Notes: generated from the letters alone by a model not told the origin. A DNA stretch of 64,000 nucleotides from an uncultured Chlamydiales bacterium (GCA_963700985.1 OY969554.1:288001-352000), one strand, 5' to 3'. Shown: positions 35,882 through 60,212, counted from the first letter of the stretch. Numbers and translations are program-made.

Positions 35882-36361
35882 ATGAAAAAATTATTTACTT
35901 TGTTTGGCGTTCTATTTGCACTTTCTAGCCCAGCCTTTGCTGAGCAAACCCTTTCGATTATTAAGCCGGACGCGGTAGCAGCGAACCATATCGGTGCTAT
36001 CATAGAACGTTTTGAAAATAATGGTTTAAAGGTGGTGGCCGGCCGCATGACGAAGCTTTCTAAGAAACAAGCTGAAGATTTCTATGCCGTGCATAAGGAT
36101 CGCCCTTTCTATAAAGACCTAGTCAATTTCATGATTTCAGGCCCAATTTTTGTGCAGGTGCTAGAAGGCCCTGATGCTGTGGCAAAAAATCGCAAGATCA
36201 TGGGTGCAACCAATCCTAAAGATGCAGAAAAAGGCACTTTAAGAGCAGATTTTGCGACCAGTATGGAGAAGAATGCCGTGCATGGATCTGACAGCATTGA
36301 TAATGCCAAAAAAGAGATCGCATTCTTTTTCAAGTCGAGTGAGATCTACTCGCGTCCTTAA
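35882..36361 (+). CDS. ndk: Nucleoside diphosphate kinase with N-terminal signal peptide
   Basis: [42 protein letters not shown]; preceded by [20 protein letters not shown]. Confidence 0.95.
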
Positions 36362-38141: not shown

Positions 38142-41100
38142 CTACTTGCCTGGCTTGCCGCTTGCACGAGGAAGTGGAGGACGCACACCGAGTTTCGGTA
38201 AGACGTTTGCTTCAGCTTCCGTTTTAGCTCCTGCTGCCTTGCTTGTAGATTTTGCTTCTACGAGGCCATTCACACTGATTCTATACACAGGGGCAATGGC
38301 TTGCAGTCCAGAAAGATCGACCTTAACCAGCGGGTTATTCAGCGCAAAAGCATACATGTTTGGCCCGTCGATGTATCGATGTGGATCTGGGGTGAGCCAG
38401 TGTCCAGTTTCTGGGTCGTAATAGCGCATTCCGAAATACGCAAGCCCGATCTCATCATCTATGCGTTTTGAAGAAAAACGCCAGGGCTGTGAAATATGTG
38501 GAATGTAGGGCACAGCTTTTTCTTCTCCGAAGGCAGTGTAACGATACTGTTCAACCATCGTACGCGAGCTGAATGAAAGAAGCGCACTTATGTTGCCTTG
38601 CAGATCATGCAGAGGAGCATAAATCTCTTCACCTAATTCAATTGCTACAGTAGCACCGATATCAGCCTGTGTTGTTCTTCCTAACACACGTAGCTGGACG
38701 AGATTGCCTGAAGCATCGGCTGCACCAATCTCATTCGTGTCGTCATAAAGGAAAGACAATCTTTGCTGTTCATTCCAGTCATTTTCTTTCCAGGCATAGG
38801 AAAACTTCTCTTGGCGTCTATTCCAGCCATCATAAGTATAAGCTAAACGCCAGGCATAGGGTTTAGTGACTTCGACTAACCGGTCAAGGGCGTCGTAGCG
38901 GAAGTAGACTTCACCTTGAGCAGTGCGCTTGCAGATGAGGTTGCCACAGGGATCATAAAAATAACGTGTCTGTGGAGTAGAGAGCAGTTGTTTTAATGGA
39001 TCAACCTGATAGTTAAATCCATCTTTGCTCAAACGATTCTGATGCGAGTCGTAGGTATAGCTATGAGAAAATATACCCTCCTCTTGTGTGAGTTGGTGCA
39101 GATTGTCATATTGATACTCTACGTCGAAATCTTTTCGAGGTGTTTTCCAAGCCATCTTTTCGATATTTCCTGCGACATCAAAGGAGAGCACTTTTTGTTC
39201 GCCCCAACGAGATGCGAGCGCAGCTTTGCGCCCCATAACATCGAAGTTATAAATCACTCTACCCATGCCTCCGATAGGCCGCTCTTCAAGGAGGTTTCCT
39301 GAAAGGTCATATTTCGCAAAGTGGTGCATATATTGGAGAAGCCCCTCTTTGGAATTGCGGATGACCTTTTTCATGTTCAGGGCATCATAGGTGTAACGAA
39401 CTGTTGAGTTATCTGGGAAGATGGTCTCAATTCGTCTGCCCATGGTGTCATAACGATTTTTCAGAACCAGGCCATTTTCTTGGCTCTCTTCTAGAATACG
39501 ACCTACTGCATCGAGCTCTCGAGCAGTGATTCGCTGTGTCTTGAGATCGCAAGTAGAGGTCTGACGTCCATTACGATCATAGGTAAATGAATAATCGACT
39601 GAATAATCAGAGGAATAGACGCGTACGAGTCTTCCTAAGCCATCATATGTATGATGAATAATCACGCCGTCCGGCTTGATTTTTTGGCTGACTAGACCTT
39701 TATGCGTGTAGGTGTAGCGTGTTACACGCTTATCGTTTGAACCATAACTTTCTGTTAAGGTAAGCAAGCGTTTCATCGGGCCATATTCCCAGCGTGTCTC
39801 AGTCATACGCGGAGGTAATTCTGGCGATAGGATCGTGCTTACTTGTCTAGCTAAATTGCCTGCTGCATCATAAAAGAGCTCTTCTTTAGAAAGAGGTAAA
39901 CCTTCGGCATTCTCTTTTTCAATGCTTGCAAGTCTGCCAAGCGCATCTTGCGTCTCGATTGTACGATTGCCCAGAGTATCAATTACAATTTTACGTGTGA
40001 CAATCTGACCGAGATCGTTTAAGAAGTGCCCGTCATATTCAACTTTTGTAATATCACCAAGAGCATTCGTGTGTTGGATTAGGCGATTGAACGCATCGAA
40101 GAGGAAGCGTTCTTTTGCTTCTTGACCATCAATGATACGTGAAATTGCAGAAGTATTACCTGCATTGTCATATTCAAAGCGGATCAATGAAAGCAATTTA
40201 CCTTTGCCATTTTCAACACGCTCTTCGATCACGCGATCCATGAAGTCATATTGCTTGTATGTCAGCTGTGTGACATTTTGGGTGCCTTTTTCTATGGAAG
40301 CGATGCGTCCTAAGTTATCATAGGTATAAAGTGTTTTCTCACCTTGGATCTCTTCGGCGATTTTTCTTCCAGCTGAATCGTATGCGTAGGTCGTGGTATT
40401 TCCTTCCGCATCGGTTTTTGCTAATAGGTTAAATGCATCGTATACAAAATGCTCTTCGGAGAGGAGACCTCCAGTTGAACTTACGATTTTTTTAGATGTG
40501 ACTCTGCCCGCAAAATCATAAGTGTAATGGGTAGCATTTTGCTCTTGATCGTAGTGCGTTTTTAAAGTGCCATCGAGAGAGTAAATGAATTTTTCGCGTC
40601 CATTATCTGGGTGGATAATCAGAAATGGTTTATCTCTAACTGTGTAAGAGAAAGAGGTGGTTTCGTTTTTGGCATTTGTTTCACTTAAAACTCGTCCCAG
40701 CGCATCACACTGTTTATATGTGGTGGGATGGAGGAGTCTTCCCTCTAGATCTAAAACAGCAGGGTAGTGCGTTGCAAGCTCGTGGCCAGCTGCATCAAAT
40801 ACTGAATGGGTCTCATTTCCTTGTGGATCGATTGTAGCAACTTTATTGCCTTTAAGATTGTACTTATAGGAAGTTGTTTTAATCGTTCCGTCGATATTCT
40901 GCTCGTCCACTTGGGCAAGACGGTTAGCGAAATCGTAGGTTAATCTTTTTGAACCTTTGCCATTAAAATCTTGATAGAGGATTTTATTGCCATTTGCATC
41001 AAAGATAGACTTGGCGATTTTGCCGAAAGCATTGCGTTCTTCAATCGGATAACCCATTGAGTTATAGCGAGTTTGAAGAGTATAAGCTAGAGAGTTATTA

Positions 41101-42983
41101 GCGTCATAAATCTCTTGCTTAGCAACATTTCCATCAGCTGAATAGATAAGGTCCGTGCGCTTCAGGAGCTTCTCTTCATTGGTTTCTAAGTCGACATAGC
41201 GTTCTTCGATGCTATGGGGAAGACCAATGAATGGTTCCTCTGTTCGTGGGATTATCGCTTTTACCTTGCGGACGTTGACTCCAGTTAGATCGGCTTTGTC
41301 AAGAGAAGAACCATTGTCGCTAATTTCGCGCAGTAGGATGAGATCTTCATTATATTCGAAAAAGTCGCGTTGTCTAACTTTACCATTTTCGAGATGTAAT
41401 CTTGCTGTGACAAGATCCGAGTTAGGTAAATAGGAGAAGACGAGGCCCTGGCCATTATCTTCTTCTACTTTTAGCAGTAAATTGCGTCCGTCTTGTGAAT
41501 AAGTGTAACGTTTTGCATACCACTCGATGCCATTTTCTTCAGGGAGGCCTTGCGCATTTAATTTTAGCGCAGTTGAGCGTGTGCCGCTGAGGTTTCCATA
41601 AAATTTCTCAAGTGTAACGTTGCTGTTGTTGTCGTAAAAAAATCTACGGCTATAGACTGGATTGTTGTGCTGATCCAAGAAGGTGCGGCAGAGCAGGTTC
41701 GTGTCATTTTCCCAAATAAACTGCTCAGCGCTGAGAAGAGCAGAACCACGCTCTTTACTATCGTAATTTTCAATGGATTTGAGTCTTAAAGAGGGGGTGT
41801 ATCGATAGATTGTTTTGCTTCCATCGTTTTGATATACCTCAGTAATACCCGTCAGTTGTTTATTAGCCTGTGGTACAGTGTAAACAAAGGAGTGTGTAGT
41901 TGAGAGATTGCCATTGTCACCAATAGGAGCTAGCAGCTCCTTTACGCGGTAATATCTAGGATCAGATTTATTATTGAGAACGATATCCTGTCCATTTACA
42001 GAGTTATGGGTGGCTGCGTAATAATCGGCAGCAACCGCATTACCTGGAGTAAATCGGCGCTGAGTTACAAGAGGGCTGCTTGGTTTATAGGGATTAGAAT
42101 AGTCGATCTCATCTTCGGGAAACCCATCACATACCACTTGTTCGAGAATAAACGCGTCGGTGTTGCCTCGCTCATCTAGTTTGCGGAACTGGTATTGAAG
42201 TTTTTTAGCGTTGCTAGTCTCGATTTCTACGCTGCGGATCTGTTGCTGTTCTTCTTTATAGCTAAACTTAGCCCATGCATAGGTCTTTGTGCCACTTCCA
42301 TTCGTTGTTTTAATAGTGGCGATCTCATCATTTCGATCATATGAATAATGGATCATGTTTCCATGGGGTAGCTTTTCCCAAAGAAGATAGTAGTGCGTTG
42401 TGAGGAATTCTTTTTCTACGTGACTATGTTGGCCAGGGATTTTTCCATAGCAACGTTCTGTGCCATCGGCGGCAAAAACCTTTAACTCACTTTGATCTGC
42501 TGACAGTGAGACATGATTGTTTTTCAGGTTAGTGCGGCCAGAAATTTCTCCATGCGCTGAATTTGTTAGCCCTTTACCAAAAAGACTTACATTCAATGGC
42601 TTAAAGTTAGTCGTAACGGAATTTTTGATCTTCGCGTTACCTGCGGTAGAGTAGTATAAGGTTGCTCCTGTTGGTTCTGGAACATAGGCTGTGCCTCTGG
42701 CTCCGTGTACGAACGCATAAAGGTGAGGGTGCAAGGACCATTTGGCAAGTTTTCCTTTGCCATTGCCGCTGACATAGCTGCGTTTTAAGTGGATGGGTTC
42801 TTGTCCTTCGATGGTTAAATCTTCTTGTGAAATGAAAAAATCGCCTGTTAAGACGTTCACGCAGGAAGAGACAAAGGAAGAGGGATCTCCTTCAGTAACA
42901 GATAGTACGCTCGGCCGTTTTGTGGCACAGTTTCCATCGATCGCAAAGCCGAGGACGAGAGAGCAAGCAAGAAGAGTTCGCAT
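38142..42983 (-). CDS. Rhs/YD-repeat protein with short (53-aa) C-terminal tip
   Basis: Signal-like N-terminus, VNVLTGDFF...LKRSY (DUF6531-like), many YD repeats, core end RYYDPETGHWLTPDP...NMYAFALNNPLVKVDLSGL. Confidence 0.93.
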   Translation of the reverse strand: MRTLLACSLVLGFAIDGNCATKRPSVLSVTEGDPSSFVSSCVNVLTGDFFISQEDLTIEGQEPIHLKRSYVSGNGKGKLAKWSLHPHLYAFVHGARGTAYVPEPTGATLYYSTAGNAKIKNSVTTNFKPLNVSLFGKGLTNSAHGEISGRTNLKNNHVSLSADQSELKVFAADGTERCYGKIPGQHSHVEKEFLTTHYYLLWEKLPHGNMIHYSYDRNDEIATIKTTNGSGTKTYAWAKFSYKEEQQQIRSVEIETSNAKKLQYQFRKLDERGNTDAFILEQVVCDGFPEDEIDYSNPYKPSSPLVTQRRFTPGNAVAADYYAATHNSVNGQDIVLNNKSDPRYYRVKELLAPIGDNGNLSTTHSFVYTVPQANKQLTGITEVYQNDGSKTIYRYTPSLRLKSIENYDSKERGSALLSAEQFIWENDTNLLCRTFLDQHNNPVYSRRFFYDNNSNVTLEKFYGNLSGTRSTALKLNAQGLPEENGIEWYAKRYTYSQDGRNLLLKVEEDNGQGLVFSYLPNSDLVTARLHLENGKVRQRDFFEYNEDLILLREISDNGSSLDKADLTGVNVRKVKAIIPRTEEPFIGLPHSIEERYVDLETNEEKLLKRTDLIYSADGNVAKQEIYDANNSLAYTLQTRYNSMGYPIEERNAFGKIAKSIFDANGNKILYQDFNGKGSKRLTYDFANRLAQVDEQNIDGTIKTTSYKYNLKGNKVATIDPQGNETHSVFDAAGHELATHYPAVLDLEGRLLHPTTYKQCDALGRVLSETNAKNETTSFSYTVRDKPFLIIHPDNGREKFIYSLDGTLKTHYDQEQNATHYTYDFAGRVTSKKIVSSTGGLLSEEHFVYDAFNLLAKTDAEGNTTTYAYDSAGRKIAEEIQGEKTLYTYDNLGRIASIEKGTQNVTQLTYKQYDFMDRVIEERVENGKGKLLSLIRFEYDNAGNTSAISRIIDGQEAKERFLFDAFNRLIQHTNALGDITKVEYDGHFLNDLGQIVTRKIVIDTLGNRTIETQDALGRLASIEKENAEGLPLSKEELFYDAAGNLARQVSTILSPELPPRMTETRWEYGPMKRLLTLTESYGSNDKRVTRYTYTHKGLVSQKIKPDGVIIHHTYDGLGRLVRVYSSDYSVDYSFTYDRNGRQTSTCDLKTQRITARELDAVGRILEESQENGLVLKNRYDTMGRRIETIFPDNSTVRYTYDALNMKKVIRNSKEGLLQYMHHFAKYDLSGNLLEERPIGGMGRVIYNFDVMGRKAALASRWGEQKVLSFDVAGNIEKMAWKTPRKDFDVEYQYDNLHQLTQEEGIFSHSYTYDSHQNRLSKDGFNYQVDPLKQLLSTPQTRYFYDPCGNLICKRTAQGEVYFRYDALDRLVEVTKPYAWRLAYTYDGWNRRQEKFSYAWKENDWNEQQRLSFLYDDTNEIGAADASGNLVQLRVLGRTTQADIGATVAIELGEEIYAPLHDLQGNISALLSFSSRTMVEQYRYTAFGEEKAVPYIPHISQPWRFSSKRIDDEIGLAYFGMRYYDPETGHWLTPDPHRYIDGPNMYAFALNNPLVKVDLSGLQAIAPVYRISVNGLVEAKSTSKAAGAKTEAEANVLPKLGVRPPLPRASGKPGK

Positions 42984-43025: not shown

Positions 43026-43910
43026 TTAAAGATTCTCTGTAGTTTTTGGCAAGCATTCTCGATCACTTGAAAGATCAGAGAGAAGGTCGGGGTGATGTTT
43101 TTTTAGCCAACGGTGAAGGCGAGAAGTTAGACGTTCTACCTCTGCGCGCTGCCCTGAGGGCTCCTTTACTCTTTCATCTTTTAGAAATGAGCCCAGGTCT
43201 AATGCGATAGCTTTTTTATTTGATGCCCCGAAATTGCGTTTAAAAGAAGCGTCCGTATTTGTGATGCCTTTCTGGCACTGTTTATTAATTAAACGCATAA
43301 GCGAGCGGATCTGTTCTTTTGCGGCCGCAACTTCATTTTGCTGCATTCTTTTATCTATGGCTTCACAAAAAGGCTCAACATGTTCTTGCAATACGAACTC
43401 TGTGGCATCTAAATCGACCTCATGGCGAACGCCCAGCTTATCATAGATCGTTAAGCGTTGAAATGCCCCCTGCGTCTTATTCAAATGGAGATAGAGAAGA
43501 GCTGTCTCTTCTCTAAGTTCATCATATGCGAGCTTTGCGCTATCAAACAGCGGAGTTAAGTCATAGCGCGATTTACGTGCTAAAATGGAGTTTTTCAATT
43601 GGGTTGGAAGGGGAAGATAGCGTATGAGCTGCTTTGGGCTTAAGTGATCATGCCTGAAAAACTTGAGCACTGTTTTCTGATCGCTTCCTAGAAAAGCGTA
43701 AAACTGCTCGCCATTTCCTAAATAAAAGAAAGGCTGCGCTAAAAGCTGTTCTTTCATTGCAGCTGGCAGAGAAAGTGTTTCCCATCTTTCTCTATTGGGC
43801 ATCGCACTAACAATCTCATAGAGACGGAAGCCGGCCGTCTGCATATTACAGACCCAATTAGTAGCCCCAATCACAACTAGTGCAAAAACCACCTTGAAAA
43901 ATGTTCGCAA
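43026..43910 (-). CDS. Membrane-anchored kinase-like paralogue K1
   Basis: LGNGEQFYAF...VLKFF; GITNTDASFKRNFG...LDLGSF. Confidence 0.72.
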   Translation of the reverse strand: MRTFFKVVFALVVIGATNWVCNMQTAGFRLYEIVSAMPNRERWETLSLPAAMKEQLLAQPFFYLGNGEQFYAFLGSDQKTVLKFFRHDHLSPKQLIRYLPLPTQLKNSILARKSRYDLTPLFDSAKLAYDELREETALLYLHLNKTQGAFQRLTIYDKLGVRHEVDLDATEFVLQEHVEPFCEAIDKRMQQNEVAAAKEQIRSLMRLINKQCQKGITNTDASFKRNFGASNKKAIALDLGSFLKDERVKEPSGQRAEVERLTSRLHRWLKKHHPDLLSDLSSDRECLPKTTENL

Positions 43911-44055
43911 ACGGCACTTTCTCCAATAGGATACTGATCGTAACTCTCTTTGATACGATAAAAGTTGGTCAAATTATTAGCCACGCCTTTGAAATCTTAT
44001 TAGAGGGAGAAGCGTAATTTCATCAGCGTCTCTGCTCTTCTCTGCGCTGATGAAG

Positions 44056-44952
44056 TTATCTCTCAGCTGTTTCTTGGGATAAGGCTTCGATCATTGTGTT
44101 GTAGTCGTGCCAAAGCTCGTGATCGCATTTGGCAAGTGAGCGGGAGAGACGCCAAGTTTTTTCTTTCACCTCTTTTTGCAGGTTTTGGCGTTGAGCTAGC
44201 GCAGGATCTTTTGAGAAAGAGCCAATATCGATTGCAACGGCTCGGCCATTGAGCAGGCCAGTGTTGCGACGAAATCCATTGTCATTATCTTTAATGCCTT
44301 TTTGGCAGCGAGAAGCGACGTTGTTAAGGATGGAAGCGATTGCTCGCTTGGCTTCTTCTTTTTTGCCGTCACGGATCATTTTTTTTACGGTAGCGTGGGC
44401 AAGCGAAGCGCGCTTTTGCAGCGCAAACTCTAAATTGTCTAGATCGACCTGATGCGAAATGCCCAATTTGTCGATGAGTGTGATGCTGCGCTTCCACTGG
44501 TTTGTTTTATTGAGTTGCATATACAAAAGGCCGGTTTCTTCGCGCAATTCATCAAAGGCGATTTTGCAGCTTTGGAAAAACTGCGCTTGATGTTTTTCGC
44601 GTGCCCGGATGAATGAAGTAGCAATTTCAGGGAGCGGAAGTGCTTTCAAACCAGAAAAATTATTCAAGTGGTGATGCTTGAAGAGTTTCAGCACGCTTTT
44701 TCCGTCTTGGCTTAAAAATGCGTAGGCCTGGCCCCCACTACCTAAAAAGGTAAAGGGCTGTGCCAGGATCTTTTGAACTGCGGCTAACTCAGGCGCTGAG
44801 AGGGGCGTGACGTCGCGATTTGGATCATAGGTGAGATTCGAAAGGATATTGCAGACCTTAAATCCTTCTGTTTTTTGATGACAGAAGCGCTCTGTAAAAC
44901 GAAAAGCCAAACAGAAGCAGAGCAGTTTAAACCAGAAAGAGAGGTGTTTCAT
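44056..44952 (-). CDS. Membrane-anchored kinase-like paralogue K2
   Basis: LGSGGQAYAF...VLKLF; GIKDNDNGFRRNTG...IDIGSF. Confidence 0.72.
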   Translation of the reverse strand: MKHLSFWFKLLCFCLAFRFTERFCHQKTEGFKVCNILSNLTYDPNRDVTPLSAPELAAVQKILAQPFTFLGSGGQAYAFLSQDGKSVLKLFKHHHLNNFSGLKALPLPEIATSFIRAREKHQAQFFQSCKIAFDELREETGLLYMQLNKTNQWKRSITLIDKLGISHQVDLDNLEFALQKRASLAHATVKKMIRDGKKEEAKRAIASILNNVASRCQKGIKDNDNGFRRNTGLLNGRAVAIDIGSFSKDPALAQRQNLQKEVKEKTWRLSRSLAKCDHELWHDYNTMIEALSQETAER

Positions 44953-45827
44953 GAATTCTCAAGGATTTTGTTAAATTCTTCTTCAAATGCCACCAGAAGT
45001 TCGGGGAAGTGTTTTGTAAGCAGGCAGCGTAAAGGCAGCGTCTCGTAAAAGAGTTCGCGTTTGTAGGTTTGGGGGTGCTTTAAAAATACATTTTTAGAGA
45101 ATGAACCCACATCGATTACAATCGCATGCTCTTTCAAAAATCCAAAATTCTTGCATAGAGTTGGATCTCGATCTGCAATCCCTTTTTTGCAGCGCTCAAC
45201 AATTAGGGACATTAGAGCTGAGATCTGTTTTCTTGCAGCTTCTGCATCGCCATTTTCTAAACTACGTTCTAAAGAAGGCATAAGCAGATCAGCGCGTTTT
45301 TGAACCATGAACTGCACCTCGTCTAAAGCCACTTTATGCTTTAGGCCTAACTTGTCGATAAGAGTGATAACAGGAAGTTGTTTGGTGGTTTTGCTCAAGT
45401 GTAAATAGAGCAGGCCGGTCTCTGCTTTTAATTCTTCGTAGGCAATTTTACAGCTGGCAAAGGTGCTTGTTAAACGCTCTTCTTTTTCGCGTTTTAGTTT
45501 TTCAAGATTTGCGAGGGGCAAGATCTTGGCAATTAGTTGTGCTTGGCGGATGTGATGGTGTTTAAAAACTTTTAATACGATCTGCTTGTCTTGGCTGAGG
45601 AATGCATAGCACTCGAGACCGCTATCTAAAAAGGTAAAAGGCTGAGAAAGGAGCGTTTGCAACTCAATTGAGGGGAGATCTGCTGGAGTATTCACGAATG
45701 CCGTTTCAGAATAGATATTCGGCAAGCTAAAGCCACGCGTTTGTTTGTGACAAAAGCGTTCTAAGGCAAAAAAGATGCCGATACCGATAAATAGTTTAAT
45801 TACGCTCGAGGATAGTTTGAATCTCAT
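44949..45827 (-). CDS. Membrane-anchored kinase-like paralogue K3
   Basis: LDSGLECYAF...VLKVF; GIADRDPTLCKNFG...IDVGSF. Confidence 0.72.
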   Translation of the reverse strand: MRFKLSSSVIKLFIGIGIFFALERFCHKQTRGFSLPNIYSETAFVNTPADLPSIELQTLLSQPFTFLDSGLECYAFLSQDKQIVLKVFKHHHIRQAQLIAKILPLANLEKLKREKEERLTSTFASCKIAYEELKAETGLLYLHLSKTTKQLPVITLIDKLGLKHKVALDEVQFMVQKRADLLMPSLERSLENGDAEAARKQISALMSLIVERCKKGIADRDPTLCKNFGFLKEHAIVIDVGSFSKNVFLKHPQTYKRELFYETLPLRCLLTKHFPELLVAFEEEFNKILENS

Positions 45828-46680
45828 GTGCCACATAATCTGAAAATTCTGGGATGCGATTTGCAGCCCAGCGTTGCATTTTGAACAGCTCCTTGCGCAT
45901 CTCTCTATATTTGTGCTTTGGTTTTCTTACTGATTTTATTTTTTTGTAAGATCCTACATCGATTTCAATAGCTTCTGTGCCAGTAAACCCGATATTGCGA
46001 TCAAAGCGCAGGTCGTGATTCGAGATCTCTTTCTCACAACGCGTGGCTATTAGTTTGATAAGGGAGCTTAAACACTGCTCCATCTCTTGGCGCGCGCCTG
46101 CTTTCATAAGCAGGTCGATCTTTTCAGGCAGCATCTCTACTCTTTTTTGGAGTATGAAAGCTGTCTGATCAGCATTGATCTGATGCTCGATGCCCAACTT
46201 ATCAACCAGCGTAATCGTGCGCTTTAAAGAATGCGTTGGCTGTAAATGTGTGCCGAGCATGCCAGTTTCATTCTTAAATTCGTGTTCAGCGATTTCGCAG
46301 CTTGTGAAAATCGAGTTTAATCGCTTGGTGCGTCTTTCCGCTAATGATGTGCGCCAGTTTTCAAGAGAGGCAGGAAGGGGGAATGTTTTTAAAATCCCTT
46401 TGATGGGGAAATTGTGGTAATGCTTAAAAACCTTAAGCACAGTCTGTTCATCTTGGCCTAAAAAAGCATAGCATTGGACGCCACTGCCCAAAAATGTGAA
46501 GCGCTGGTCTAAGAGTTTGCCAAACGAGGGGTTTTCGTTATGGGGATATGTAGGTTGAAAAACAAAATCAGAATGCAGCTTATCTAAGCGGAAGCCAGCT
46601 GTCTGATAACGGCAAAAACGTTCAACCGCAAAGATTGCGAGCAGCGAACAAACAATTGTAAATGTTTTTTTAAAGCGCAT
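45796..46680 (-). CDS. Membrane-anchored kinase-like paralogue K4
   Basis: LGSGVQCYAF...VLKVF; EISNHDLRFDRNIG...IDVGSY. Confidence 0.72.
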   Translation of the reverse strand: MRFKKTFTIVCSLLAIFAVERFCRYQTAGFRLDKLHSDFVFQPTYPHNENPSFGKLLDQRFTFLGSGVQCYAFLGQDEQTVLKVFKHYHNFPIKGILKTFPLPASLENWRTSLAERRTKRLNSIFTSCEIAEHEFKNETGMLGTHLQPTHSLKRTITLVDKLGIEHQINADQTAFILQKRVEMLPEKIDLLMKAGARQEMEQCLSSLIKLIATRCEKEISNHDLRFDRNIGFTGTEAIEIDVGSYKKIKSVRKPKHKYREMRKELFKMQRWAANRIPEFSDYVAHEIQTILERN

Positions 46681-47548
46681 GCGGACATTGTATCTCTTCT
46701 TCTAAGAAGAGGGCAAGTCCGGCTTCACGCATAGCCAGCCAATCCCTCAGGCTTTGGGTGATTTTTCGGATTTCTGCTAGAGCAAGCGCGCTGGGTTTTG
46801 CATCAATATTTTTTGAAAATGGTCCTAAATCTAGAAAAATAGCTTTACCCTCGATGAAACCGATGTTAGTACGAATCAGCGGATCTCGGTCACTTAGCTC
46901 TTTATTCAGGCGGCTCTGCAGCAGGGCAAGCAAAGAAGAGATTCCTTGTTGAGCAGATAAAATATCGCCTTTTTGAAGCCACTCTTCAAACTGAGGATAG
47001 GCTAGTGTTGCCCTTTTTTGGAGGATGAAACCCATATTATCGAGATCAACTGCATGTGCAATTCCTAATTTGTCGATCACAGTGACTTTTTTGCGAAGAT
47101 GTTGTGTTGTATTTAGGTGAAGAAAGAGCAGGCCGGTCTCTTCACGTAGATCGGAAAATGAGAGTTCATAGCTTTGCGCGGTCATCTGCATTTTTCTCTG
47201 GAAATATGAGAGCCTTTCTTTTTGCCAAGCAAAGGTTGGAAGCCACTCAAGCATTTGAATGCGTTTTTGATAGTGGTTATTTAATAGTTTAAGCACTGTT
47301 TTTCCATCTCGTGAGAGAAAGACAAAGCTCTGCTTGCCGCGTGCAAGATAGGTAAAGGGCTGGTCTAAAATTTCTAGCGCTTGTTTTTCTAGCTTCGTTG
47401 AGCAGATTTGTTGAACATTAAAAGTGTTGTCCTGGATTTTTGAAATGCGGAAGCCATCGGTCGCTTTGTGGCAGAAGCGGCTGATACCAATCGCAAGCAG
47501 AGCCAAGCTTAAGAGTTTAACAATTCTCTTTTTAATTATTTTCTTCAT
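46670..47548 (-). CDS. Membrane-anchored kinase-like paralogue K5
   Basis: LARGKQSFVF...VLKLL; ELSDRDPLIRTNIG...LDLGPF. Confidence 0.72.
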   Translation of the reverse strand: MKKIIKKRIVKLLSLALLAIGISRFCHKATDGFRISKIQDNTFNVQQICSTKLEKQALEILDQPFTYLARGKQSFVFLSRDGKTVLKLLNNHYQKRIQMLEWLPTFAWQKERLSYFQRKMQMTAQSYELSFSDLREETGLLFLHLNTTQHLRKKVTVIDKLGIAHAVDLDNMGFILQKRATLAYPQFEEWLQKGDILSAQQGISSLLALLQSRLNKELSDRDPLIRTNIGFIEGKAIFLDLGPFSKNIDAKPSALALAEIRKITQSLRDWLAMREAGLALFLEEEIQCPHAL

Positions 47549-48408
47549 TGAGAGGTCACCAGAGAATCGAGATGTTTAATTAAAAGAGGAGATGTCGAGG
47601 GATCTTCATTGGCAAGCCAGCTCCTCAGACGCGCTGTGATGGCAATGAGATCGCGCTCATAAACATCAGGCTGCTTGCGCGCGCTATCGCGTTTAAATCG
47701 GCCTACGTCGACAAAAATGGGCTCATCACCCACAAACCCTAAGTTTTTATGCAGGCGTGGATCCTCATCAAAAATTCCCAGTTGGCAGCGTTTGCGCAGA
47801 AGTGAGACGGTCTTTTCAAGTGTGGCTTTAGCTGCATCCATTTGATCATTATTAATCTGCCGTTGAAGGTAAGGAAGTAGCATTTCGGCTTTGGCTTGCA
47901 GAATGAAAGCAGTTTTATCGAGGTCGATAGCGTGAGCAATTCCCAACTTATCGACAATCGTGAGTTTTGTGCCAATAGTATTAGTTTCAGTTAAATGAAG
48001 ATGAATGAGCCCGGTTTCTTGTTTTAGCTCATTAAAAGCGAGTAGATAACTATTCAGATCTCGCTGCCATCCTTTTTCAACTCTAGCCACTCTTTTTGCT
48101 GCAGCTTTTTTGAGAAAAGAGGGGAGATGCCAGTCTAAAAGAAAAGCAGGCGTAATGCCTCGGCTCATTAGCTTGAGCACATATTTTCCATCCTGGGAAA
48201 CGAAAGCGAAGCACTGACCTCCGTGACCCAAAAAATAGAACTTCTGATTCAAGATTTTTTTGTCAAAGTTGCATGGCTCATGGCCTTTTGGAAGCGCAAA
48301 TGTGATGCGGGCAATTGAAAACCCCGCTGTCTTTTTTGTGCAAAAGTGACGCAAAGGAATGATTGTCGCGCCTAAAATGAGATAAACTAAGATTAGCTTT
48401 CTGTTCAC
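47545..48408 (-). CDS. Membrane-anchored kinase-like paralogue K6
   Basis: LGHGGQCFAF...VLKLM; GIFDEDPRLHKNLG...VDVGRF. Confidence 0.72.
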   Translation of the reverse strand: MNRKLILVYLILGATIIPLRHFCTKKTAGFSIARITFALPKGHEPCNFDKKILNQKFYFLGHGGQCFAFVSQDGKYVLKLMSRGITPAFLLDWHLPSFLKKAAAKRVARVEKGWQRDLNSYLLAFNELKQETGLIHLHLTETNTIGTKLTIVDKLGIAHAIDLDKTAFILQAKAEMLLPYLQRQINNDQMDAAKATLEKTVSLLRKRCQLGIFDEDPRLHKNLGFVGDEPIFVDVGRFKRDSARKQPDVYERDLIAITARLRSWLANEDPSTSPLLIKHLDSLVTSQ

Positions 48409-49256
48409 AGTGCACTCGCATTGTTCATAGCATTTTCAAAAAACGGCAAAAGCTCAGGGTCTTCAGCTCCCAGCCATTTTTTAAGCGCACCAGCTTTTAT
48501 TTTAGGCTCGTCTTCAGGCTTTTTTTTAGCCAAGCTGCCACAGTCGATAAGAACGGCTTGATCGCCAATAAATCCAAAGTTTTTTGTCAGATGTGAATCT
48601 CGATCGTAGATTCCTTTTTGATCAAGCGTATGCAAGAGCTTAGCTAACGATTCAAGAAGAGTCTTTTTTTCTTGCTGCGCCATGAGCGTGGGAAGCACCA
48701 GATTTGCGCGCTTTTGTAAAACAAATTCAAGCCTGTCTGCATCCAAACGATGTTGAATATTCAAGCGATCTACCAGTGTAAGGCGGCAGTTTAAATCAGA
48801 GGATTTATTGAGATGGAGGAAAATTAAACCACTCTCATCTCTAACTTCATCGAAGGCTAGTTTGTAACTTTGAAATAATTTCGTGAGCTCTGCTTGCTTT
48901 TTTCCCTGCTTTGCAACTCTCCAATCATCTAATCCATGCGGCAAGGGAATAGCATCCAAAAAGGGCGGCAGACGAAGATGTTGAAACTTAAAAAACTTAA
49001 GCACGTATTTTCCATCTGGCGAAGCAAATACGTAGCTCTGAGCGCCTTTGCCCAGATAGTAAAAAGGTTTGGCTAAAATTGTGCGGATTTCGTCTTTTTC
49101 AACTTGGTTCAGCGCAGCTGTATCCCATACCGCCTGCGGTTCAAGTGCTGAGCGGATATTTGCCACCTCAAAGCCATCCGTAACTCTGTGGCAAAGCCTT
49201 TCAGCTGCAATAACTGCTATGATAAAAATAAGAAGAAGAAAAAGCCGTTTATACAT
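48405..49256 (-). CDS. Membrane-anchored kinase-like paralogue K7
   Basis: LGKGAQSYVF...VLKFF; GIYDRDSHLTKNFG...IDCGSL. Confidence 0.72.
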   Translation of the reverse strand: MYKRLFLLLIFIIAVIAAERLCHRVTDGFEVANIRSALEPQAVWDTAALNQVEKDEIRTILAKPFYYLGKGAQSYVFASPDGKYVLKFFKFQHLRLPPFLDAIPLPHGLDDWRVAKQGKKQAELTKLFQSYKLAFDEVRDESGLIFLHLNKSSDLNCRLTLVDRLNIQHRLDADRLEFVLQKRANLVLPTLMAQQEKKTLLESLAKLLHTLDQKGIYDRDSHLTKNFGFIGDQAVLIDCGSLAKKKPEDEPKIKAGALKKWLGAEDPELLPFFENAMNNASAL

Positions 49257-49373
49257 CTGTCCGCGTGTCAAAAGCGATTAAGCGATTAGATTATGAGGCT
49301 GATACAAAATTCACTACCAGTAAATTTTCTTTATCAATTAGTATAATTTTTTTTGATGCTGGAGGAAAAAATC

Positions 49374-50726
49374 ATGGCACACAAAAAGTTGATTGGAAGT
49401 TTTGTTTTCTTTTCTTGTCTGCTGTCACCTAATTTGAAACTCTTTTCTCAGGCAGGCATTAGCCTCTATGTGACAGATCAAACAAACATACAGCTAGTGG
49501 TTATTGATACAGACACCTTTGCTATAACCGCTACCATTCCTCTTATTTCTCAACCGGGTGCAGGAGGCCCTAACGGAGTCGCGATTACTCCGGATAACAA
49601 GTTCGCTTATGTAGGTACCGTTCCATTAACTTCAACTCCTATTCCGGGCGTCAATGCTGTAAATTTGTCTACCGCAGTTGTTACCGAAATCCAGATCGAT
49701 GATGGAAATACTGGCCAAGGTGTGGCCATAACTCCTGATGGTACTATGGCTTATGTTACTAATGGCAGTAGTAAGGTTTTCCCTATAGATGTTGCCACAA
49801 ACGTAGCTGGATCTGGTATTACGGTCGGAGGTGATCCTGATAGCATTGCAATTCAGCCTGTAGGGGCGCCAATTCAAGCCTATGTGGCTAATTTTAGTGA
49901 TCAAAATATTTCTGTAATCAACACAGCAACGAATGCGGTTATAGCTACTATTACTCTTCCGGCTGGCAGTTTGCCAACCAGCGTGGCAATCACCCCCACC
50001 GGTTTATTCACCTACGTTGGTGTTCTTGATAACACTGATGTTTCTGTGATCAGCACAACTTCGAATACTATATCTGCTACTGTGGATTTAGGAGCTTTCG
50101 CGGACGCTATAACTATAGCAAATGTACCAAATCCACCCTCCTCTCCTGATGTCCCTGGTATATTCGCGTATGCTTACATCTTCGGTTCTCAGACAGTTAA
50201 TGTGATCGATACGAGCACAAATACAATAGTTGGGACCATTAATCTTCCCGAATCGTCTACTACAGCTTTTATGGCTTCTACCCCTGATGGAACACAAGTT
50301 TTTCTGGTAGATAACAGTAATAATGTCATTGAAATCGATACTGCTACAAATACAGCTACGGTGGCGCTTGCACTCCCTGGCACCGCAGGCGGTATTGCAA
50401 TGGGTCCCGTGCCGCCAATTCCACCACCACCCAACCCGAAACCTCTACCACCTTCTAATCTCACAGGTGAGCTGCGCAAGGTGATTTTCGCCACACAAAC
50501 AGAGTACATTCACAAGCTGCAGTGGACCCCCAGCACTGACACGACTGTCGTTGATTATCTTGTTTTCCGCAACGGCATCCAGATCGCCGTGATTAGTGCC
50601 TCTGGACCATTTGAGTATAACGACCAGAATCGCCATAAAAATGAGAGCGACGTTTACACATTAGTGAGTGTAAATGCATTAGGTGTGCAGAGCGACCCCA
50701 TCACACTTAATTTCAACGGGAAGTAA
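49374..50726 (+). CDS. Secreted YVTN beta-propeller + conserved C-terminal domain (copy 2)
   Basis: GGAGG RBS before ATG 49374; signal peptide; propeller repeats; shared tail. Confidence 0.88.
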   Translation: MAHKKLIGSFVFFSCLLSPNLKLFSQAGISLYVTDQTNIQLVVIDTDTFAITATIPLISQPGAGGPNGVAITPDNKFAYVGTVPLTSTPIPGVNAVNLSTAVVTEIQIDDGNTGQGVAITPDGTMAYVTNGSSKVFPIDVATNVAGSGITVGGDPDSIAIQPVGAPIQAYVANFSDQNISVINTATNAVIATITLPAGSLPTSVAITPTGLFTYVGVLDNTDVSVISTTSNTISATVDLGAFADAITIANVPNPPSSPDVPGIFAYAYIFGSQTVNVIDTSTNTIVGTINLPESSTTAFMASTPDGTQVFLVDNSNNVIEIDTATNTATVALALPGTAGGIAMGPVPPIPPPPNPKPLPPSNLTGELRKVIFATQTEYIHKLQWTPSTDTTVVDYLVFRNGIQIAVISASGPFEYNDQNRHKNESDVYTLVSVNALGVQSDPITLNFNGK

Positions 50727-50852
50727 TTTAAGTCTAAAACAGAACAGGATAGATAGGATCAGGCAGGATATGAAAGATCGAATAGAGAAAATATCCTGCA
50801 TATCCTGTAAATGATTTACCGAAAAGGTTCGATCTTACCTACTTAACTTTAA
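50727..50852. repeat. CAGGAT/ATCCTG palindromic element downstream of propeller gene (copy A)
   Basis: agaacaggata...ggatcaggcaggatat...aaatatcctgcatatcctgtaaatgatttacc; also at 52190 and 54643. Confidence 0.85.
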
Positions 50853-50860
50853 TGGATGGT

Positions 50861-52189
50861 ATGGCTCATAAAAAATGGATTGGAAATTTTGTTTTTTTAT
50901 CTTGTCTGCTGACGCCTAACTGGAATCTTTTTTCTCAGGCAGGCATTAGCCTCTACCTGACAGATGAAAGCCATCAGCAAATGTACGTGATAGACACGGA
51001 AACCTTTGCTATAACGGCTACGATTCCCCTAACGAATCCTGGGCCTCGAGGCTTAGCCATTAATGCAGATAATACATTTGCTTATGTAGGTGTTAGCCCT
51101 GGCGTAAACCTTGTAAACCTAACCACTCAGCAAGCTGAGTCTGTAATTTTTATAGGTGGTGCTGCTGGCCAAGATGCAGCTATAACACCCGACGGCACTA
51201 CTGTTTATGTTCCAGATGGTAGCATGTCTGTTTGGGTGATTGATACGGCTACGAATGTGTCTACAGCTTCTATTGGGACCGGAAGTCAGCCCAGTTTTGT
51301 TGCAATTCAACCTGTTGCACCATTCCAGGCGTATGTTTCCAATTTTGGTTCTGGTACTGTTACTGTAATCGACACAAATACGATGAGTTTTGTAACTAAT
51401 ATTGTAGTTGGGACTAGTTCTAGTGATCCTTCCGGTATAGCCGCCACTCCTAACATTCCTAGCACTCCTAACGGTTTGTTTGCCTATGTTGGCTTTGATA
51501 GTGGCGATACGATCACTGTGATTGACGCTGGCACGAATACCATCTCATCTACTGTGACTGTAGGATCTGTTCCTTTAGATGTTACCATAGCAAATGTGCC
51601 GAGTCCCCCTTCTCCCTTATCTCCTGGTGCATATGCTTATACTGCCAACTCAAACGCAGGCACTGTTTCTGTTATAAATGCAGCCGCTTCTCCACCGGTA
51701 ACGGTAACAACGCTTACCCCTCCTAATGCGAACGCGCTACAGTTTATTGCTGCGACTCCTGACGGAAAACAGGTGTTTGTGATTGATGGTCATAGTGATA
51801 TCTCGGTAATCGATACTTCTACAAATGAAGCTACTTTGGTAGTTACAATAATTGACTCTATCCCAGGTGGTGTGGCAATGGGTAATGTGCTGCCAAACCC
51901 GCAGCCTCAGCCGCCTTCTAATCTCACTGGGCAGCTGCGCAAGGTGATCTTTGCCACTCAAACAGAATATATCCACAAGCTGCAGTGGAGCCCTAGCACT
52001 GACACGACCGTGGTCAATTACATTCTTTTCCGCAATGGCAGCCAGATCGCGGTGATCAGCGCCTCTGGGCCATTTGAGTATAACGACCAGAACCGCCATA
52101 AAAATGAGAGCGACGTTTACACATTAGTGAGCGTGAACGCATCAGGCGCGCAAAGCACACCCATCACCTTAAACTTCAACGGGAAGTAA
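50861..52189 (+). CDS. Secreted YVTN beta-propeller + conserved C-terminal domain (copy 3)
   Basis: MAHKKWIG..LLTPNWNLFSQAGISLY, parallel to copy 2; shared tail. Confidence 0.88.
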   Translation: MAHKKWIGNFVFLSCLLTPNWNLFSQAGISLYLTDESHQQMYVIDTETFAITATIPLTNPGPRGLAINADNTFAYVGVSPGVNLVNLTTQQAESVIFIGGAAGQDAAITPDGTTVYVPDGSMSVWVIDTATNVSTASIGTGSQPSFVAIQPVAPFQAYVSNFGSGTVTVIDTNTMSFVTNIVVGTSSSDPSGIAATPNIPSTPNGLFAYVGFDSGDTITVIDAGTNTISSTVTVGSVPLDVTIANVPSPPSPLSPGAYAYTANSNAGTVSVINAAASPPVTVTTLTPPNANALQFIAATPDGKQVFVIDGHSDISVIDTSTNEATLVVTIIDSIPGGVAMGNVLPNPQPQPPSNLTGQLRKVIFATQTEYIHKLQWSPSTDTTVVNYILFRNGSQIAVISASGPFEYNDQNRHKNESDVYTLVSVNASGAQSTPITLNFNGK

Positions 52190-52332
52190 TTTAATTCTAA
52201 AGCAGAACAAGATGTAGAGAGGATCAGGCAGGATATAAAGGATGGAAGAAATATCCTGCATATCCTGTCGCTTGCGATCATGCACATCCTGTAAATGATT
52301 TACCGAAAGAGCTTGGTCTTATCTACTTAACT
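52190..52332. repeat. CAGGAT/ATCCTG element (copy B)
   Basis: Homologous to 50727-50852. Confidence 0.85.
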
Positions 52333-53223
52333 TTAAGGGATAGCTTGGATCTGTTGGTCTAAGTAGCTAGCGAGTTCAGGTTGACGCATCTGTAGCCACT
52401 GTTTGAAGTGGTCTGTGATGCGCAGCACTTCATGTTGAAAAGGCTCATTTTTCTTATTTGATTCACCCTTCTTAAAACGGCCGATATCGAATTGAATTGG
52501 CTCTGCATCGATTAAGCCAAAGTTAGTCTTAAGATCCGGATCTTTATCGGTGAGACCGGCATCGTGTCTTTTGGCGAGTAGATGGAGAAGTCCTACGAGC
52601 GCACTTTTAGCTTTTTCTATCTGATTCGTTTGAATCATCTCTTCAATTGCCGCGTAAAAAGGTTTCGCTCTCTTTTGCAGAATGAATTCCATCTGATCTA
52701 AATCGAGTGTGTGGGTGATTTTCCCCTTGTCAGTGATCTGGATCTTTTGCCTTAGATTATCACTTTTAGTGAGATGCAGATAGATCAAGCCCGTCTCTTC
52801 TTTTAGATGCTGAAAAGCAAATTGGTAGCTGGAGAAATCTTTTTCGCGCTTGCTTTCTTTGATCGCAATTTTTTGCTGCCGCCATTGCTCAAGTGAAGAG
52901 GGGAGGGGAAGGTTTTTTAGCCACCTCGGAGCTTCGATATGACTTACCCGAAAAAATTTGATCACATATAGCTGATCTTGCGAGACAAATACGTAACACT
53001 GTGCACCTTTGCCTAAATAAGTGAAAGGTTGTGCCAAAATTGTGCGCAGGCCCCCATCTTGCTTAAAATGAGCAGGAGACTCCCAACGCGCGTCATATGC
53101 AAGGCGGGAAGAGATCTTGTTTAGAGCAAAACCATCCGTCTGTTTATAGCAGAAATGCTTAAGCCCAAAAAAAACGCCCACAACCAGAGTTAACCACCCC
53201 GCTTGCTGATAAATTTTCTTCAT
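52333..53223 (-). CDS. Membrane-anchored kinase-like paralogue K8
   Basis: LGKGAQCYVF...VIKFF; GLTDKDPDLKTNFG...FDIGRF. Confidence 0.72.
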   Translation of the reverse strand: MKKIYQQAGWLTLVVGVFFGLKHFCYKQTDGFALNKISSRLAYDARWESPAHFKQDGGLRTILAQPFTYLGKGAQCYVFVSQDQLYVIKFFRVSHIEAPRWLKNLPLPSSLEQWRQQKIAIKESKREKDFSSYQFAFQHLKEETGLIYLHLTKSDNLRQKIQITDKGKITHTLDLDQMEFILQKRAKPFYAAIEEMIQTNQIEKAKSALVGLLHLLAKRHDAGLTDKDPDLKTNFGLIDAEPIQFDIGRFKKGESNKKNEPFQHEVLRITDHFKQWLQMRQPELASYLDQQIQAIP

Positions 53224-53313
53224 GCTGAGGATTATCATGCCGTGCAAAATTCCCTTCCACTAGATTTTCTTTTTGTGTAATTTATAATTTTTTTTTATAA
53301 ATGGAAAAAACTT

Positions 53314-54642
53314 ATGAAGTTACGTTCTTGGACTGCAAGTTTTATCTTTGTCGCATCTCTTTTAACGCCTAATTTGAATCTGTTTTCTGAAGCTGGAGTT
53401 AATGCCTATGTTCTTAGTCATGGCGCTGCAAATGATGGTTTTGTCGGTGTATTTGAGACAGATACTCCTTTCACTCAAACAGCTTCTATCGGCAGTTCGT
53501 TCTCGAATCCGACCGGAATGGTTTATACGGTCGTTCCTGTTGTTCCTCCCACCGTTCCACCGACAGATCATGAATTAGTTTATGTGGCAGCAACTGACGA
53601 GATAGAAGTCATTGATGTTCTGACGGGTACATTAGTGGCACCGATATCGATAACCGGTAATACTGCTTTTGATGTTGCAGCCACTTCCAATGGCGCTTTT
53701 GTCTATGCAACAATTATCAATGCTGCCCAAGTGTTAGTGATTGATACAAGTACCAATACAATAGTTGGGGCGCCTATCCCCGTAGGACACAGCCCTGAAG
53801 GCATTGCTATTACGCCCAGCGATCAACGGGCATATGTTGCCAATGCCGCCGATGGCACTGTTTCTGTGATCAACACAATTTCGAATACCGTTGTTGCGAC
53901 CGTCACCGTGGGCTCTGATCCTGTTCGAGTTGCCATCACACCGAATGGAAACTCTGTCTATGTTGTCAATACCGGATCCGATAATGTATCTGTAATTAAT
54001 ACTGCCACGAATACAGTAGTTGCAACTATTACCGTAGGAGACACTCCAATAAACATCGCCATAGCAACTGTGCAAGGTGGCGCTCACGTATATGCGTATG
54101 TCACCAACGGCGACAGCGATACTGTTACTGTGATCGACACGGACACAATGCTGGCAGTCGGTTCGCCAATCATCGTAGGGCTTGATCCTGGCCCTATCGC
54201 CGCGACTCCTGATGGAATGTCTGTTTTTGTGGGAATAGGTAACAACGATACTCTCTCTATTATCGATACCGCCACAAATGTAGTTAATAATGTGCCAGGA
54301 GTTCCAATCCAGTCGGCCATCGTGATGGTGCCGGCTGCACCCCCACCCCCACCTCAACCTCAACCACCATCAAATCTTACTGGGCTGCTACGTAAAGTGA
54401 TCTTTGCTACCCAAACCGAATACATCCATCAGCTGCAGTGGAGCCCTAGTATCGATACAACCGTGGTTGATTACATTCTTTTCCGCAACGGCAGCCAGAT
54501 CGCGGTGATCAGCGCCTCTGGGCCGTTTGAGTATAACGACCAGAACCGCCACAAAAATGAAAGCGACATTTATAGTCTAGTGAGTGTGAATGCCTCGGGT
54601 GTGCAAAGCGATCCCATCACACTTCTTTTCAATGGGAAGTAA
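53314..54642 (+). CDS. Secreted YVTN beta-propeller + conserved C-terminal domain (copy 4)
   Basis: Signal peptide, VAITPNGNSVYVVNTGSDNVSVINT repeats, shared tail. Confidence 0.88.
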   Translation: MKLRSWTASFIFVASLLTPNLNLFSEAGVNAYVLSHGAANDGFVGVFETDTPFTQTASIGSSFSNPTGMVYTVVPVVPPTVPPTDHELVYVAATDEIEVIDVLTGTLVAPISITGNTAFDVAATSNGAFVYATIINAAQVLVIDTSTNTIVGAPIPVGHSPEGIAITPSDQRAYVANAADGTVSVINTISNTVVATVTVGSDPVRVAITPNGNSVYVVNTGSDNVSVINTATNTVVATITVGDTPINIAIATVQGGAHVYAYVTNGDSDTVTVIDTDTMLAVGSPIIVGLDPGPIAATPDGMSVFVGIGNNDTLSIIDTATNVVNNVPGVPIQSAIVMVPAAPPPPPQPQPPSNLTGLLRKVIFATQTEYIHQLQWSPSIDTTVVDYILFRNGSQIAVISASGPFEYNDQNRHKNESDIYSLVSVNASGVQSDPITLLFNGK

Positions 54643-60020: not shown

Positions 60021-60212
60021 CTACTGGCGCTTCTTTTTTTTTGCGGCAGGCTTGATCGGGACTAACTTGTATCGATAAGGTGGCTTGATCTCCACGACCT
60101 TGCCATTTCGAGTAAAAACAAGAGCAGTACCAGTGCGAACCGCAGTTTCAAAAGCTCTTTGAAAACTGCGCTCATGGGCCTTTAATATTTTTTCATTAAA
60201 ATCATCGCTCAT
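60021..60212 (-). CDS. Small partner protein of zeta-toxin-like ATPase (putative antitoxin)
   Basis: 63-aa ORF overlapping the ATPase stop; GTALVFTRNGKVVEIKP. Confidence 0.6.
   Translation of the reverse strand: MSDDFNEKILKAHERSFQRAFETAVRTGTALVFTRNGKVVEIKPPYRYKLVPIKPAAKKKKRQ

Follow-up and report, generated by a model that had tools for sequence, protein, structure and literature searches.

Why would a chlamydial bacterium encode a row of membrane-anchored, kinase-like proteins, and on which side of the membrane would such proteins work? The question is raised by a stretch of 64,000 nucleotides (nt) from an uncultured Chlamydiales bacterium (GCA_963700985.1 OY969554.1:288001-352000), the whole of which we call the window and in which positions are counted from the first letter. 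It carries eight minus-strand genes, K1 to K8, whose products each combine an N-terminal membrane anchor with a domain resembling a protein kinase. ATP is normally absent from the bacterial periplasm, and ATP-dependent kinases are unexpected there. A first-pass annotation, made from the sequence alone, had described these genes as an eight-member, diversified family of active, atypical kinases with catalytic domains outside the cytoplasm. We find that the family forms a new branch, at family level, within the superfamily of protein-kinase-like (PKL) proteins, with an unusual layout; as judged from sequences and models it is probably an active one, and its location is possibly unprecedented.

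An anchored protein family with a predicted kinase fold

All eight open reading frames (ORFs) are present where they had been described, encoding 287–304 amino acids (aa) each (Table 1). K1–K8 are true paralogs, with 30–37% identity to K1 and 26 invariant columns in an alignment of the eight, among them C21, T25, G27, F28, G67, K83, E135, D220, N226, D238 and G240 (K1 numbering, used throughout). Every motif that the first-pass annotation had listed recurs in all eight proteins: the basic N-terminus, one hydrophobic helix, C-x3-TxGF, the glycine (Gly) loop, V[LI]K, the E-E-T-G segment, [DN]xD-x5-NxG and DxG. Searching the 2.07-Mb single-contig genome with a K1–K8 profile found ten copies. The eight in the window match the family profile at E values of 2.7e-111 to 2.6e-128, so their similarity is far beyond chance, and two more, K9 and K10, lie at distant sites; 'eight-member' thus describes the window, and the genome has ten.

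Each protein begins with a short basic N-tail, a single hydrophobic helix of ~19 residues and the juxtamembrane motif R-F-C-x2-Q-T-x-G-F, after which a variable linker leads to a compact kinase-fold domain of ~230 residues. Six longer forms (P0001, P0002, P0013, P0151, P0154 and P0156; 495–564 aa) carry two kinase domains per chain, with a single N-terminal hydrophobic segment and no second membrane helix. A search for longer forms revealed no fusion to other domains, which is weak evidence; the long proteins encountered are these tandem kinase–kinase forms.

An AlphaFold2 model of K1, built on the eight-sequence alignment, reached 83.4 in the predicted local distance difference test (pLDDT) and a predicted template modelling score of 0.80. 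It opens with a helix (residues 2–25), followed by three strands bearing the Gly loop, which lies between predicted strands 61–66 and 70–75, and K83, which lies in strand 80–85. A long helix then ends at the E-E-T-G segment, further strands and a helix lead into the D220…N226 loop, and the chain continues through two short strands and D238-x-G240 to ~55 mostly helical residues. Foldseek, run on the PDB, returned 59 matches (E <= 0.001), and every match listed was kinase-fold, with WbdD, PRPK, AceK, MSMEG_1954, Rio2, WaaP and COQ8A in the lead. A second look with VIA-align (PRPK, Z 12.2; AceK, Z 11.4) also listed kinase folds throughout. In a Foldseek-independent structure search of 48,161 representatives, the top 50 were exclusively kinase-fold chains, including AceK (Z 11.2), PINK1 (10.9), TkArkI (10.7), POMK (10.3), Bud32, Rio1 and many Hanks kinases (9.3–10.6). 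The bilobed PKL fold is thus borne out by the model and by three comparisons that gave PKL structures only. Because the Z values plateau, no known family is clearly closest. From the secondary-structure positions and the alignment of motifs with AceK, the residues at K83, D220, N226 and D238 are predicted to gather round one nucleotide pocket.

Residues were counted in 339 distinct full-length members aligned to the family profile and drawn from the window, the fetched loci, the representative search and the homologue search. G67, K83, Q175 and N226 are invariant (339/339); D238 and D157 are kept in 337 members each, G240 in 336, D77 and F172 in 334 each, and the catalytic Asp, D220, in 328. 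Of the five catalytic positions, that of the alphaC Glu, E135, varies most (Glu in 291, Gln in another 20). Conservation of the Lys, Asp, Asn and DFG-Asp, first noted in the eight window genes, therefore extends across hundreds of diverged members. The position two residues before D220 has Asp in 290 members and Asn in 46, in agreement with the proposed replacement of the HRD His. The catalytic loop, with its D-x5-N spacing, is one residue beyond canonical, as had also been claimed; hhalign, run against single Escherichia coli sequences (WaaP, WaaY and AceK), puts a one-residue gap there for WaaY and AceK and matches D220, N226 and D238 with the catalytic-loop and DFG residues of both, neither alignment being significant alone. 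Somewhere in the K-E-D-N-D set, 60 of the 339 members depart from the consensus, mainly at E135. A K10-type subfamily of seven sequences (K10 and six relatives in loci L031, L032 and L034) has Arg or Leu at D220 and retains K83, N226 and D238.

Conservation peaks in strand beta3 (3.12 bits), the hinge (3.11), strand beta4 (2.99) and the Gly loop (2.80), followed by the catalytic loop (2.50), DxG (2.45) and the juxtamembrane motif (2.31). The lowest values are those of the stretch after DxG (1.20), the beta3–alphaC insert (1.24) and the C-terminal helices (1.43), and the alphaD region is low as well; ~55 residues follow DxG, with no conserved column in 242–252. Kinases usually bind substrate in the regions that match these variable segments, and the pairing of a conserved core with variable substrate regions fits a common chemistry applied to divergent substrates. 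Outside the classical motifs there are further near-invariant, family-specific residues: D77, D157 and Q175, counted above, and H163 (297/339) and D168 (288/339). A conserved beta-hairpin insert, D157-K-L-G-x-x-H163-x-x-D-L-D168, holds three of them, and Q175 lies within F-x-L-Q-K. These five residues could bind metal or substrate.

Curated models do not recognise the family. Pfam gave no kinase family above threshold for the eight window members or for a set of 129 members, NCBIfam (eight members) and PDB sequence profiles gave no match, and we found no description of the family in searches of full-text literature, so the view that this is not a recognised characterised family stands. The 30 ESM Atlas clusters nearest to K3 are all unnamed, with Chlamydiota the commonest phylum, and the nearest named clusters, YrbL-PhoP_reg, Kinase-PolyVal and WaaY, at 0.86–0.87 (0.86 for WaaY), serve as leads only.

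Several known kinases resemble the family in part. AceK (PDB 3eps, 6k5l; PF06315) came top of the independent search with 205 residues aligned at a root-mean-square deviation (rmsd) of 4.3, hhalign sets D220, N226 and D238 opposite its D457, N462 and D475, and both are compact and without a classical activation segment. However, the hhalign probability is 1.55%, the Pfam AceK_kinase model touches 2 of the 129 members weakly (best E 0.033, below a full match), and AceK is a 578-aa cytoplasmic two-domain protein without a membrane anchor, in comparison with which the family's catalytic loop is one residue longer. Bud32/PRPK and the Rio kinases (PDB 7szc, 6wqx, 4ww5, 1zp9, 1zao) gave the highest VIA-align scores (PRPK over 191 residues at an rmsd of 4.3; Rio1, Z 10.6) and share the minimal size of ~230 residues and the positions of Lys, Asp, Asn and Asp. 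They are soluble and act on the ribosome or tRNA machinery, whereas the chlamydial family is N-terminally anchored, confined to chlamydiae and distinguished by the D157–D168 hairpin; neither RIO1 nor Bud32-type Pfam models matched the 8 or the 129 members.

The PKL enzymes WaaP, WaaY, KdkA and WbdD (PF06293, PF06176; PDB 6dfl, 4ax8, 4azs) work at the membrane on glycolipid or glycan substrates and include the best Foldseek E value (WbdD, 1.9e-05; WaaP, 1.3e-04), but they are cytoplasmic and peripheral, lack an N-terminal signal anchor and have a catalytic-loop spacing one residue shorter. The WaaP and WaaY hidden Markov models matched none of the 129 members at E <= 1, and their hhalign alignments are not significant. 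UbiB/ABC1/COQ8 proteins (PDB 7udp, 7cz2, 5yjz; Foldseek E 6.8e-05 to 6.5e-04) are likewise membrane-associated and PKL, but differ in size and in the position of the anchor, and Pfam ABC1 (PF03109) gave no match. POMK, Fam20 and FAM69/DIPK offer an analogy of layout, with an N-terminal signal anchor and then a non-cytosolic kinase domain; structurally they are no nearer than other kinases, there is no sequence match, and for the chlamydial proteins a place outside the cytoplasm is a proposal. Hanks kinases (PF00069/PF07714), whose activation segment ends in APE and whose C-lobe has helices alphaF–alphaI, are set apart by the short, unconserved stretch after DxG and by the absence of any Pkinase match in the 8 or the 129 members.

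Distribution and age of the family

A profile search of 1.84 billion representatives returned 2,546 clusters (50% identity) at E <= 0.001, and 1,802 at E <= 1e-30. The 120 homologues listed have no Pfam domain and no name other than 'hypothetical protein'. Their organism labels are mostly Chlamydiae, Chlamydiales and Parachlamydiales, with a few Verrucomicrobia, one Anaerolineae and one Melainabacteria; two Verrucomicrobia-labelled loci (L022 and L023) share chlamydial synteny and nest within chlamydial clades. Named loci come from metagenome-assembled genomes of Rhabdochlamydiaceae, Simkaniaceae, Neptunochlamydia, Waddliaceae and Parachlamydiaceae. Of 400 genomes sampled from the phylum, 298 have the kinases, with per-family counts of 85/89 (f1), 21/23 (f3), 46/46 (f6), 68/69 (f7) and 31/35 (f9). 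They are rare in f30 (4/17) and were found in none of the 29 genomes of f4, a group with genomes of 1.0–1.2 Mb that appears, from genome size, to be Chlamydiaceae-like. The kinase family is nearly universal in chlamydiae other than Chlamydiaceae, has neither a Pfam model nor a name, and would be a large one even if its domain faced inward. Its absence from 29 small-genome relatives makes it a candidate marker of envelope biology separating environmental chlamydiae from vertebrate pathogens.

We collected 24 related loci with a three-sequence alignment as query; 15 of them hold two to nine adjacent copies and nine hold one. A FastTree phylogeny was built from 88 full-length members, leaving aside fragments below 250 aa and the duplicate locus L003. 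K1–K7 are collinear with members 9, 8, 7, 6, 5, 4 and 2 of the array in L020, with starred support for all window genes but K6 (Table 1). Such positional orthology indicates that the paralogs are older than the divergence of these genomes and that their order has been retained, as it is in most environmental chlamydiae. As to the description 'diversified family', the tree replaces local diversification with an ancient set of fixed order.

The layout in the window is in keeping with the first description, including the overlapping gene ends and the 145-bp gap between K1 and K2. Five end-to-start overlaps (4, 41, 11, 4 and 4 nt) join K2–K7, for which reason we read these genes as an operon; promoter and terminator scans gave sites no more numerous than in shuffles. 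K8 lies 3 kb upstream of K7, with two plus-strand beta-propeller genes between them, and is the array's ancestral head gene, later split from K7 by these two genes. The longest K8 ORF has an in-frame ATG eight codons inside it, at 53223, which is where the first-pass annotation had ended the array.

Membrane orientation and proposed function

We consider it moderately probable that the N-terminus is cytoplasmic and the catalytic domain extracytoplasmic, an orientation argued from the sequences flanking the helix. Flank charges were counted in 331 members, anchored on the conserved juxtamembrane motif and with a C flank of 15 residues. The N side has on average 2.53 Lys+Arg and 0.10 Asp+Glu and the C flank 2.07 and 1.09, giving net charges of +2.4 and +1.0. 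The N side has the higher net charge in 230 of the 331, the same in 68 and the lower in 33, and 141 members have three or more Lys or Arg ahead of the helix. Even the most distant members examined retain an N-terminal hydrophobic segment, P0013 opens in the manner of a cleavable signal peptide, the two-domain forms lack a second helix, all of which fits this orientation, and an RR-type Tat pattern occurs in only 5 of 339 sequences scanned. Two TLC nucleotide transporters, both full-length, are encoded in the genome (E 8.9e-225 and 2.7e-185). The role of such transporters is the import of host ATP, and host ATP would therefore have to cross the periplasm. A precedent for nucleotide-dependent enzymes at work outside the chlamydial cytoplasm is given by Gehre et al. 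2016 (PMC4829429), who document chlamydial enzymes that use imported UDP-glucose there.

Other observations weigh against this orientation, or against the kinase function that we build on it. Lys and Arg alone do not separate the flanks, a cruder boundary definition gives 1.97 Lys+Arg on the N side and 2.49 on the C side and so favours the opposite orientation, and a conserved Arg and Lys immediately after the helix are unfavourable for Sec export. Cys content (3.7 per member, 1.35%) is close to that of the genome's cytoplasmic set (1.38%), as against 0.95% in a crude exported set. Even and odd Cys numbers are balanced (169 and 170) and no Cys pair covaries with C21; the crude exported set itself divides into 129 even and 113 odd, so that parity is uninformative on topology. 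A Cys at position 70, in the Gly loop, is found in 146 of 339 members and would be odd in an oxidising compartment. The claim that the positive-inside rule places the domain outside thus keeps its support from net charge and loses some to the closeness of the Lys+Arg counts and to the cytoplasm-like Cys content. To these points are added the non-significant sequence links to known kinases (hhalign E 0.033 for AceK, 0.082 for WaaY and 0.5 for WaaP), the lack of a consistent partner among neighbouring genes across loci, and the K10-type subfamily, whose members may be inactive pseudokinases. The same topological puzzle is raised by the GT2 glycosyltransferase encoded in the window (Table 1).

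Our preferred reading, on which belief and doubt seem to us evenly matched, is that the proteins are active, constitutive minimal kinases tethered to the inner membrane on its periplasmic side, and that every paralog has an envelope substrate of its own. With the N-terminus in the cytoplasm, the helix would serve as a signal anchor, or possibly as a cleaved signal peptide, and would keep the kinase domain on that side. ATP on its way to the nucleotide transporters of an obligate energy parasite would be available there. From the fold and the conserved residues, ATP would be held by the Gly-rich loop at G67, the beta3 Lys K83 and the alphaC Glu E135; D220 would act as the catalytic base, and N226 and D238 would bind Mg2+. 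As the enzymes have no activation segment, constitutive competence is expected of them, as of Rio, Bud32, AceK and WaaP. Each paralog probably phosphorylates a different envelope substrate, whether a glycolipid or glycan or an envelope protein. We infer this division of labour because the paralogs are ancient, fixed in order and most different where kinases bind their substrates.

The same enzymes might instead face the cytoplasm (N-out, C-in, as ZipA and LapB) and phosphorylate biosynthetic intermediates in the inner leaflet, such as lipid A/Kdo, lipid-linked glycans or other glycolipids, in the manner of WaaP, WaaY, KdkA and WbdD. This we think unlikely, though it is the alternative with most in its favour: Foldseek has WbdD, WaaP and UbiB-type proteins near the top of its matches, the named ESM Atlas clusters that lie nearest point the same way at lead level, ATP is certain in the cytoplasm, the Cys content and the basic residues after the helix would be at home there, and a GT2 glycosyltransferase gene follows the array in three loci (the window, L016 and L020), directly in L016 and L020 and with an RHS gene intervening in the window. 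N-out anchors such as E. coli ZipA, LapB and YhcB, however, have neutral or acidic tails, whereas the N-tail of the family is basic and nearly free of acidic residues, with six Lys or Arg in K5. The signal-peptide-like N-terminus of P0013, moreover, is too short to span the membrane, and Pfam Kdo/WaaP and WaaY are absent from the 129 members.

That N-terminus of P0013, with its short h-region and A-H-A site, bears also on the idea that the hydrophobic stretch is a cleaved Sec signal peptide and that the kinases are exported, by type II secretion or in vesicles, to the inclusion lumen or the host cytosol as effectors. Tail and hydrophobic stretch together occupy a median of 22 residues before the motif, as in signal peptides, positions -3 and -1, close to where the helix ends, are small residues in several paralogs, host ATP would be plentiful, and effector families are likewise large and diverged, with variation greatest in the putative substrate-binding regions. 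A conserved cleavage motif is absent, however; R-F-C-x2-Q-T-x-G-F, which comes straight after the helix, ranks with the better-conserved segments, the modelled K1 helix runs unbroken into it, and ancient, collinear paralogs are unlike the fast turnover typical of effector families. We regard export of this kind as improbable. Slightly more improbable still is a kinase fold that binds nucleotide without phosphotransfer, the proteins being membrane ATPases or nucleotide-gated scaffolds as proposed for UbiB/COQ8, Bud32 and Rio. COQ8, Bud32 and Rio are described as ATPases, and the close folds include COQ8A, MSMEG_1954, Rv3197, PRPK/Bud32 and Rio; the comparatively weak conservation of E135 and the K10-type subfamily without the catalytic Asp are consistent with such a role. 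The near-invariance of D220, N226 and D238 is by contrast the pattern of chemistry, a pattern that does not separate phosphotransfer from hydrolysis.

If the periplasmic reading holds, environmental chlamydiae might possess a periplasmic kinome, which we suggest tentatively: signal-anchored kinases, up to ten or more in number and of ancient divergence, using host ATP in transit on envelope glycolipids or proteins. It would be a chemistry possible only because of energy parasitism, and a bacterial counterpart to the kinases of the eukaryotic secretory pathway. Outward-facing kinases would mean that energy parasitism opens the envelope to nucleotide-driven chemistry, and would point to phosphorylated envelope components as yet unknown. 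Because the soluble domain is small and confidently predicted, both activity and topology are directly testable.

Neighbouring genes

In the window, the order of genes is a 731-aa protein, a PiT phosphate transporter, c1, the array, the GT2 glycosyltransferase, Vut_1 and Tgt, and it recurs in part elsewhere (Table 1). Neighbours in other loci are heterogeneous and include inverse-autotransporter-like, MFS, SBP_bac_5, photolyase, epimerase and S1 genes.

Table 1. Kinase-family genes and neighbouring features, in window positions except for K9 and K10, with the closest relatives of K1–K8 in the FastTree phylogeny (support in brackets, stars as in the tree).
Feature	Position	Strand	Description	Closest relatives in tree
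K1	43026-43910	-	294 aa; N-terminal anchor and protein-kinase-like domain; last gene of the array	L016_2of2 (99*), then L020_9of9 (98*)
K2	44056-44952	-	298 aa paralog	L016_1of2 (94), L020_8of9 (97*)
K3	44949-45836	-	295 aa paralog; overlaps K2 by 4 nt	sister L020_7of9 (100*)
K4	45796-46680	-	294 aa paralog; overlaps K3 by 41 nt	sister L020_6of9 (99*)
K5	46670-47548	-	292 aa paralog; six Lys/Arg ahead of the hydrophobic helix	sister L020_5of9 (99*); wider clade has Simkaniaceae L025_1, L026_1
K6	47545-48408	-	287 aa paralog; GTG start	nearest L020_4of9, poorly supported (88, open)
K7	48405-49271	-	288 aa paralog; opens the seven-gene block	sister L005_2of3 (99*), then L020_2of9 (96*)
K8	52333-53247	-	304 aa from TTG at 53247; 296 aa from ATG at 53223	clade of 14 rows, each first in its array, in many genomes (97*)
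K9	match G000:C1:1644293-1645045; ORF L001 4267-5160	-	297 aa; E 1.0e-66; distant site	
K10	match 822962-823753; ORF L002 4897-5772 = G000:C1:822897-823772	+	291 aa; E 3.8e-50; distant site	
GT2 glycosyltransferase	36330-38141	-	603 aa; long basic N-tail, one hydrophobic helix ahead of the catalytic domain	
RHS-repeat protein	38142-42983	-	1613 aa; signal peptide, DUF6531; immediately downstream of K1	
Beta-propeller	32639-33958	-	one of four secreted YncE/lactonase-like paralogs	
Beta-propeller	49353-50726	+	one of four secreted YncE/lactonase-like paralogs	
Beta-propeller	50852-52189	+	one of four secreted YncE/lactonase-like paralogs	
Beta-propeller	53314-54642	+	one of four secreted YncE/lactonase-like paralogs	
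c1	55790-56620	-	276 aa; clear signal peptide, no Pfam match; next to the divergent PiT gene	
PiT phosphate transporter	56693-57676		divergent; next to c1	
Zeta-toxin/AAA_33-like P-loop kinase ORF	60202-60789	-	195 aa; between the 731-aa protein and AlgH/MlaD/MlaF-like genes	

The c1 gene is found upstream of the array in 12 loci (46–70% identity), and the array's head gene lies 68–476 bp after it in related loci. An AlphaFold2 model of c1 (pLDDT 77.1) has two beta-sandwich domains with generic FN3/Ig-like matches only. As an obligate partner of the kinases c1 was rejected: it is present in 196 of the 400 genomes and is not co-distributed with them, being missing from f3 (0/23) and f6 (0/46), where nearly every genome has kinases, and present in 14 of the 17 genomes of f30, where four have them. 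Predicting a complex of the K8 domain with c1 gave a score of 0.00 (mark 0.32), which is evidence neither way.

The RHS and beta-propeller genes were likewise rejected as kinase partners, as they are absent from other arrays; the RHS gene and the beta-propellers between K8 and K7 are present in the window alone and count as insertions, that of the RHS gene being lineage-specific. Pfam found no toxin domain in the RHS protein. Three of the four beta-propellers share a nearly identical C-terminal module of ~90 aa (PPSNLTG...NFNGK), and two of the four are those that split K8 from K7. At its distant site, K10 overlaps the end of an M32 carboxypeptidase gene.

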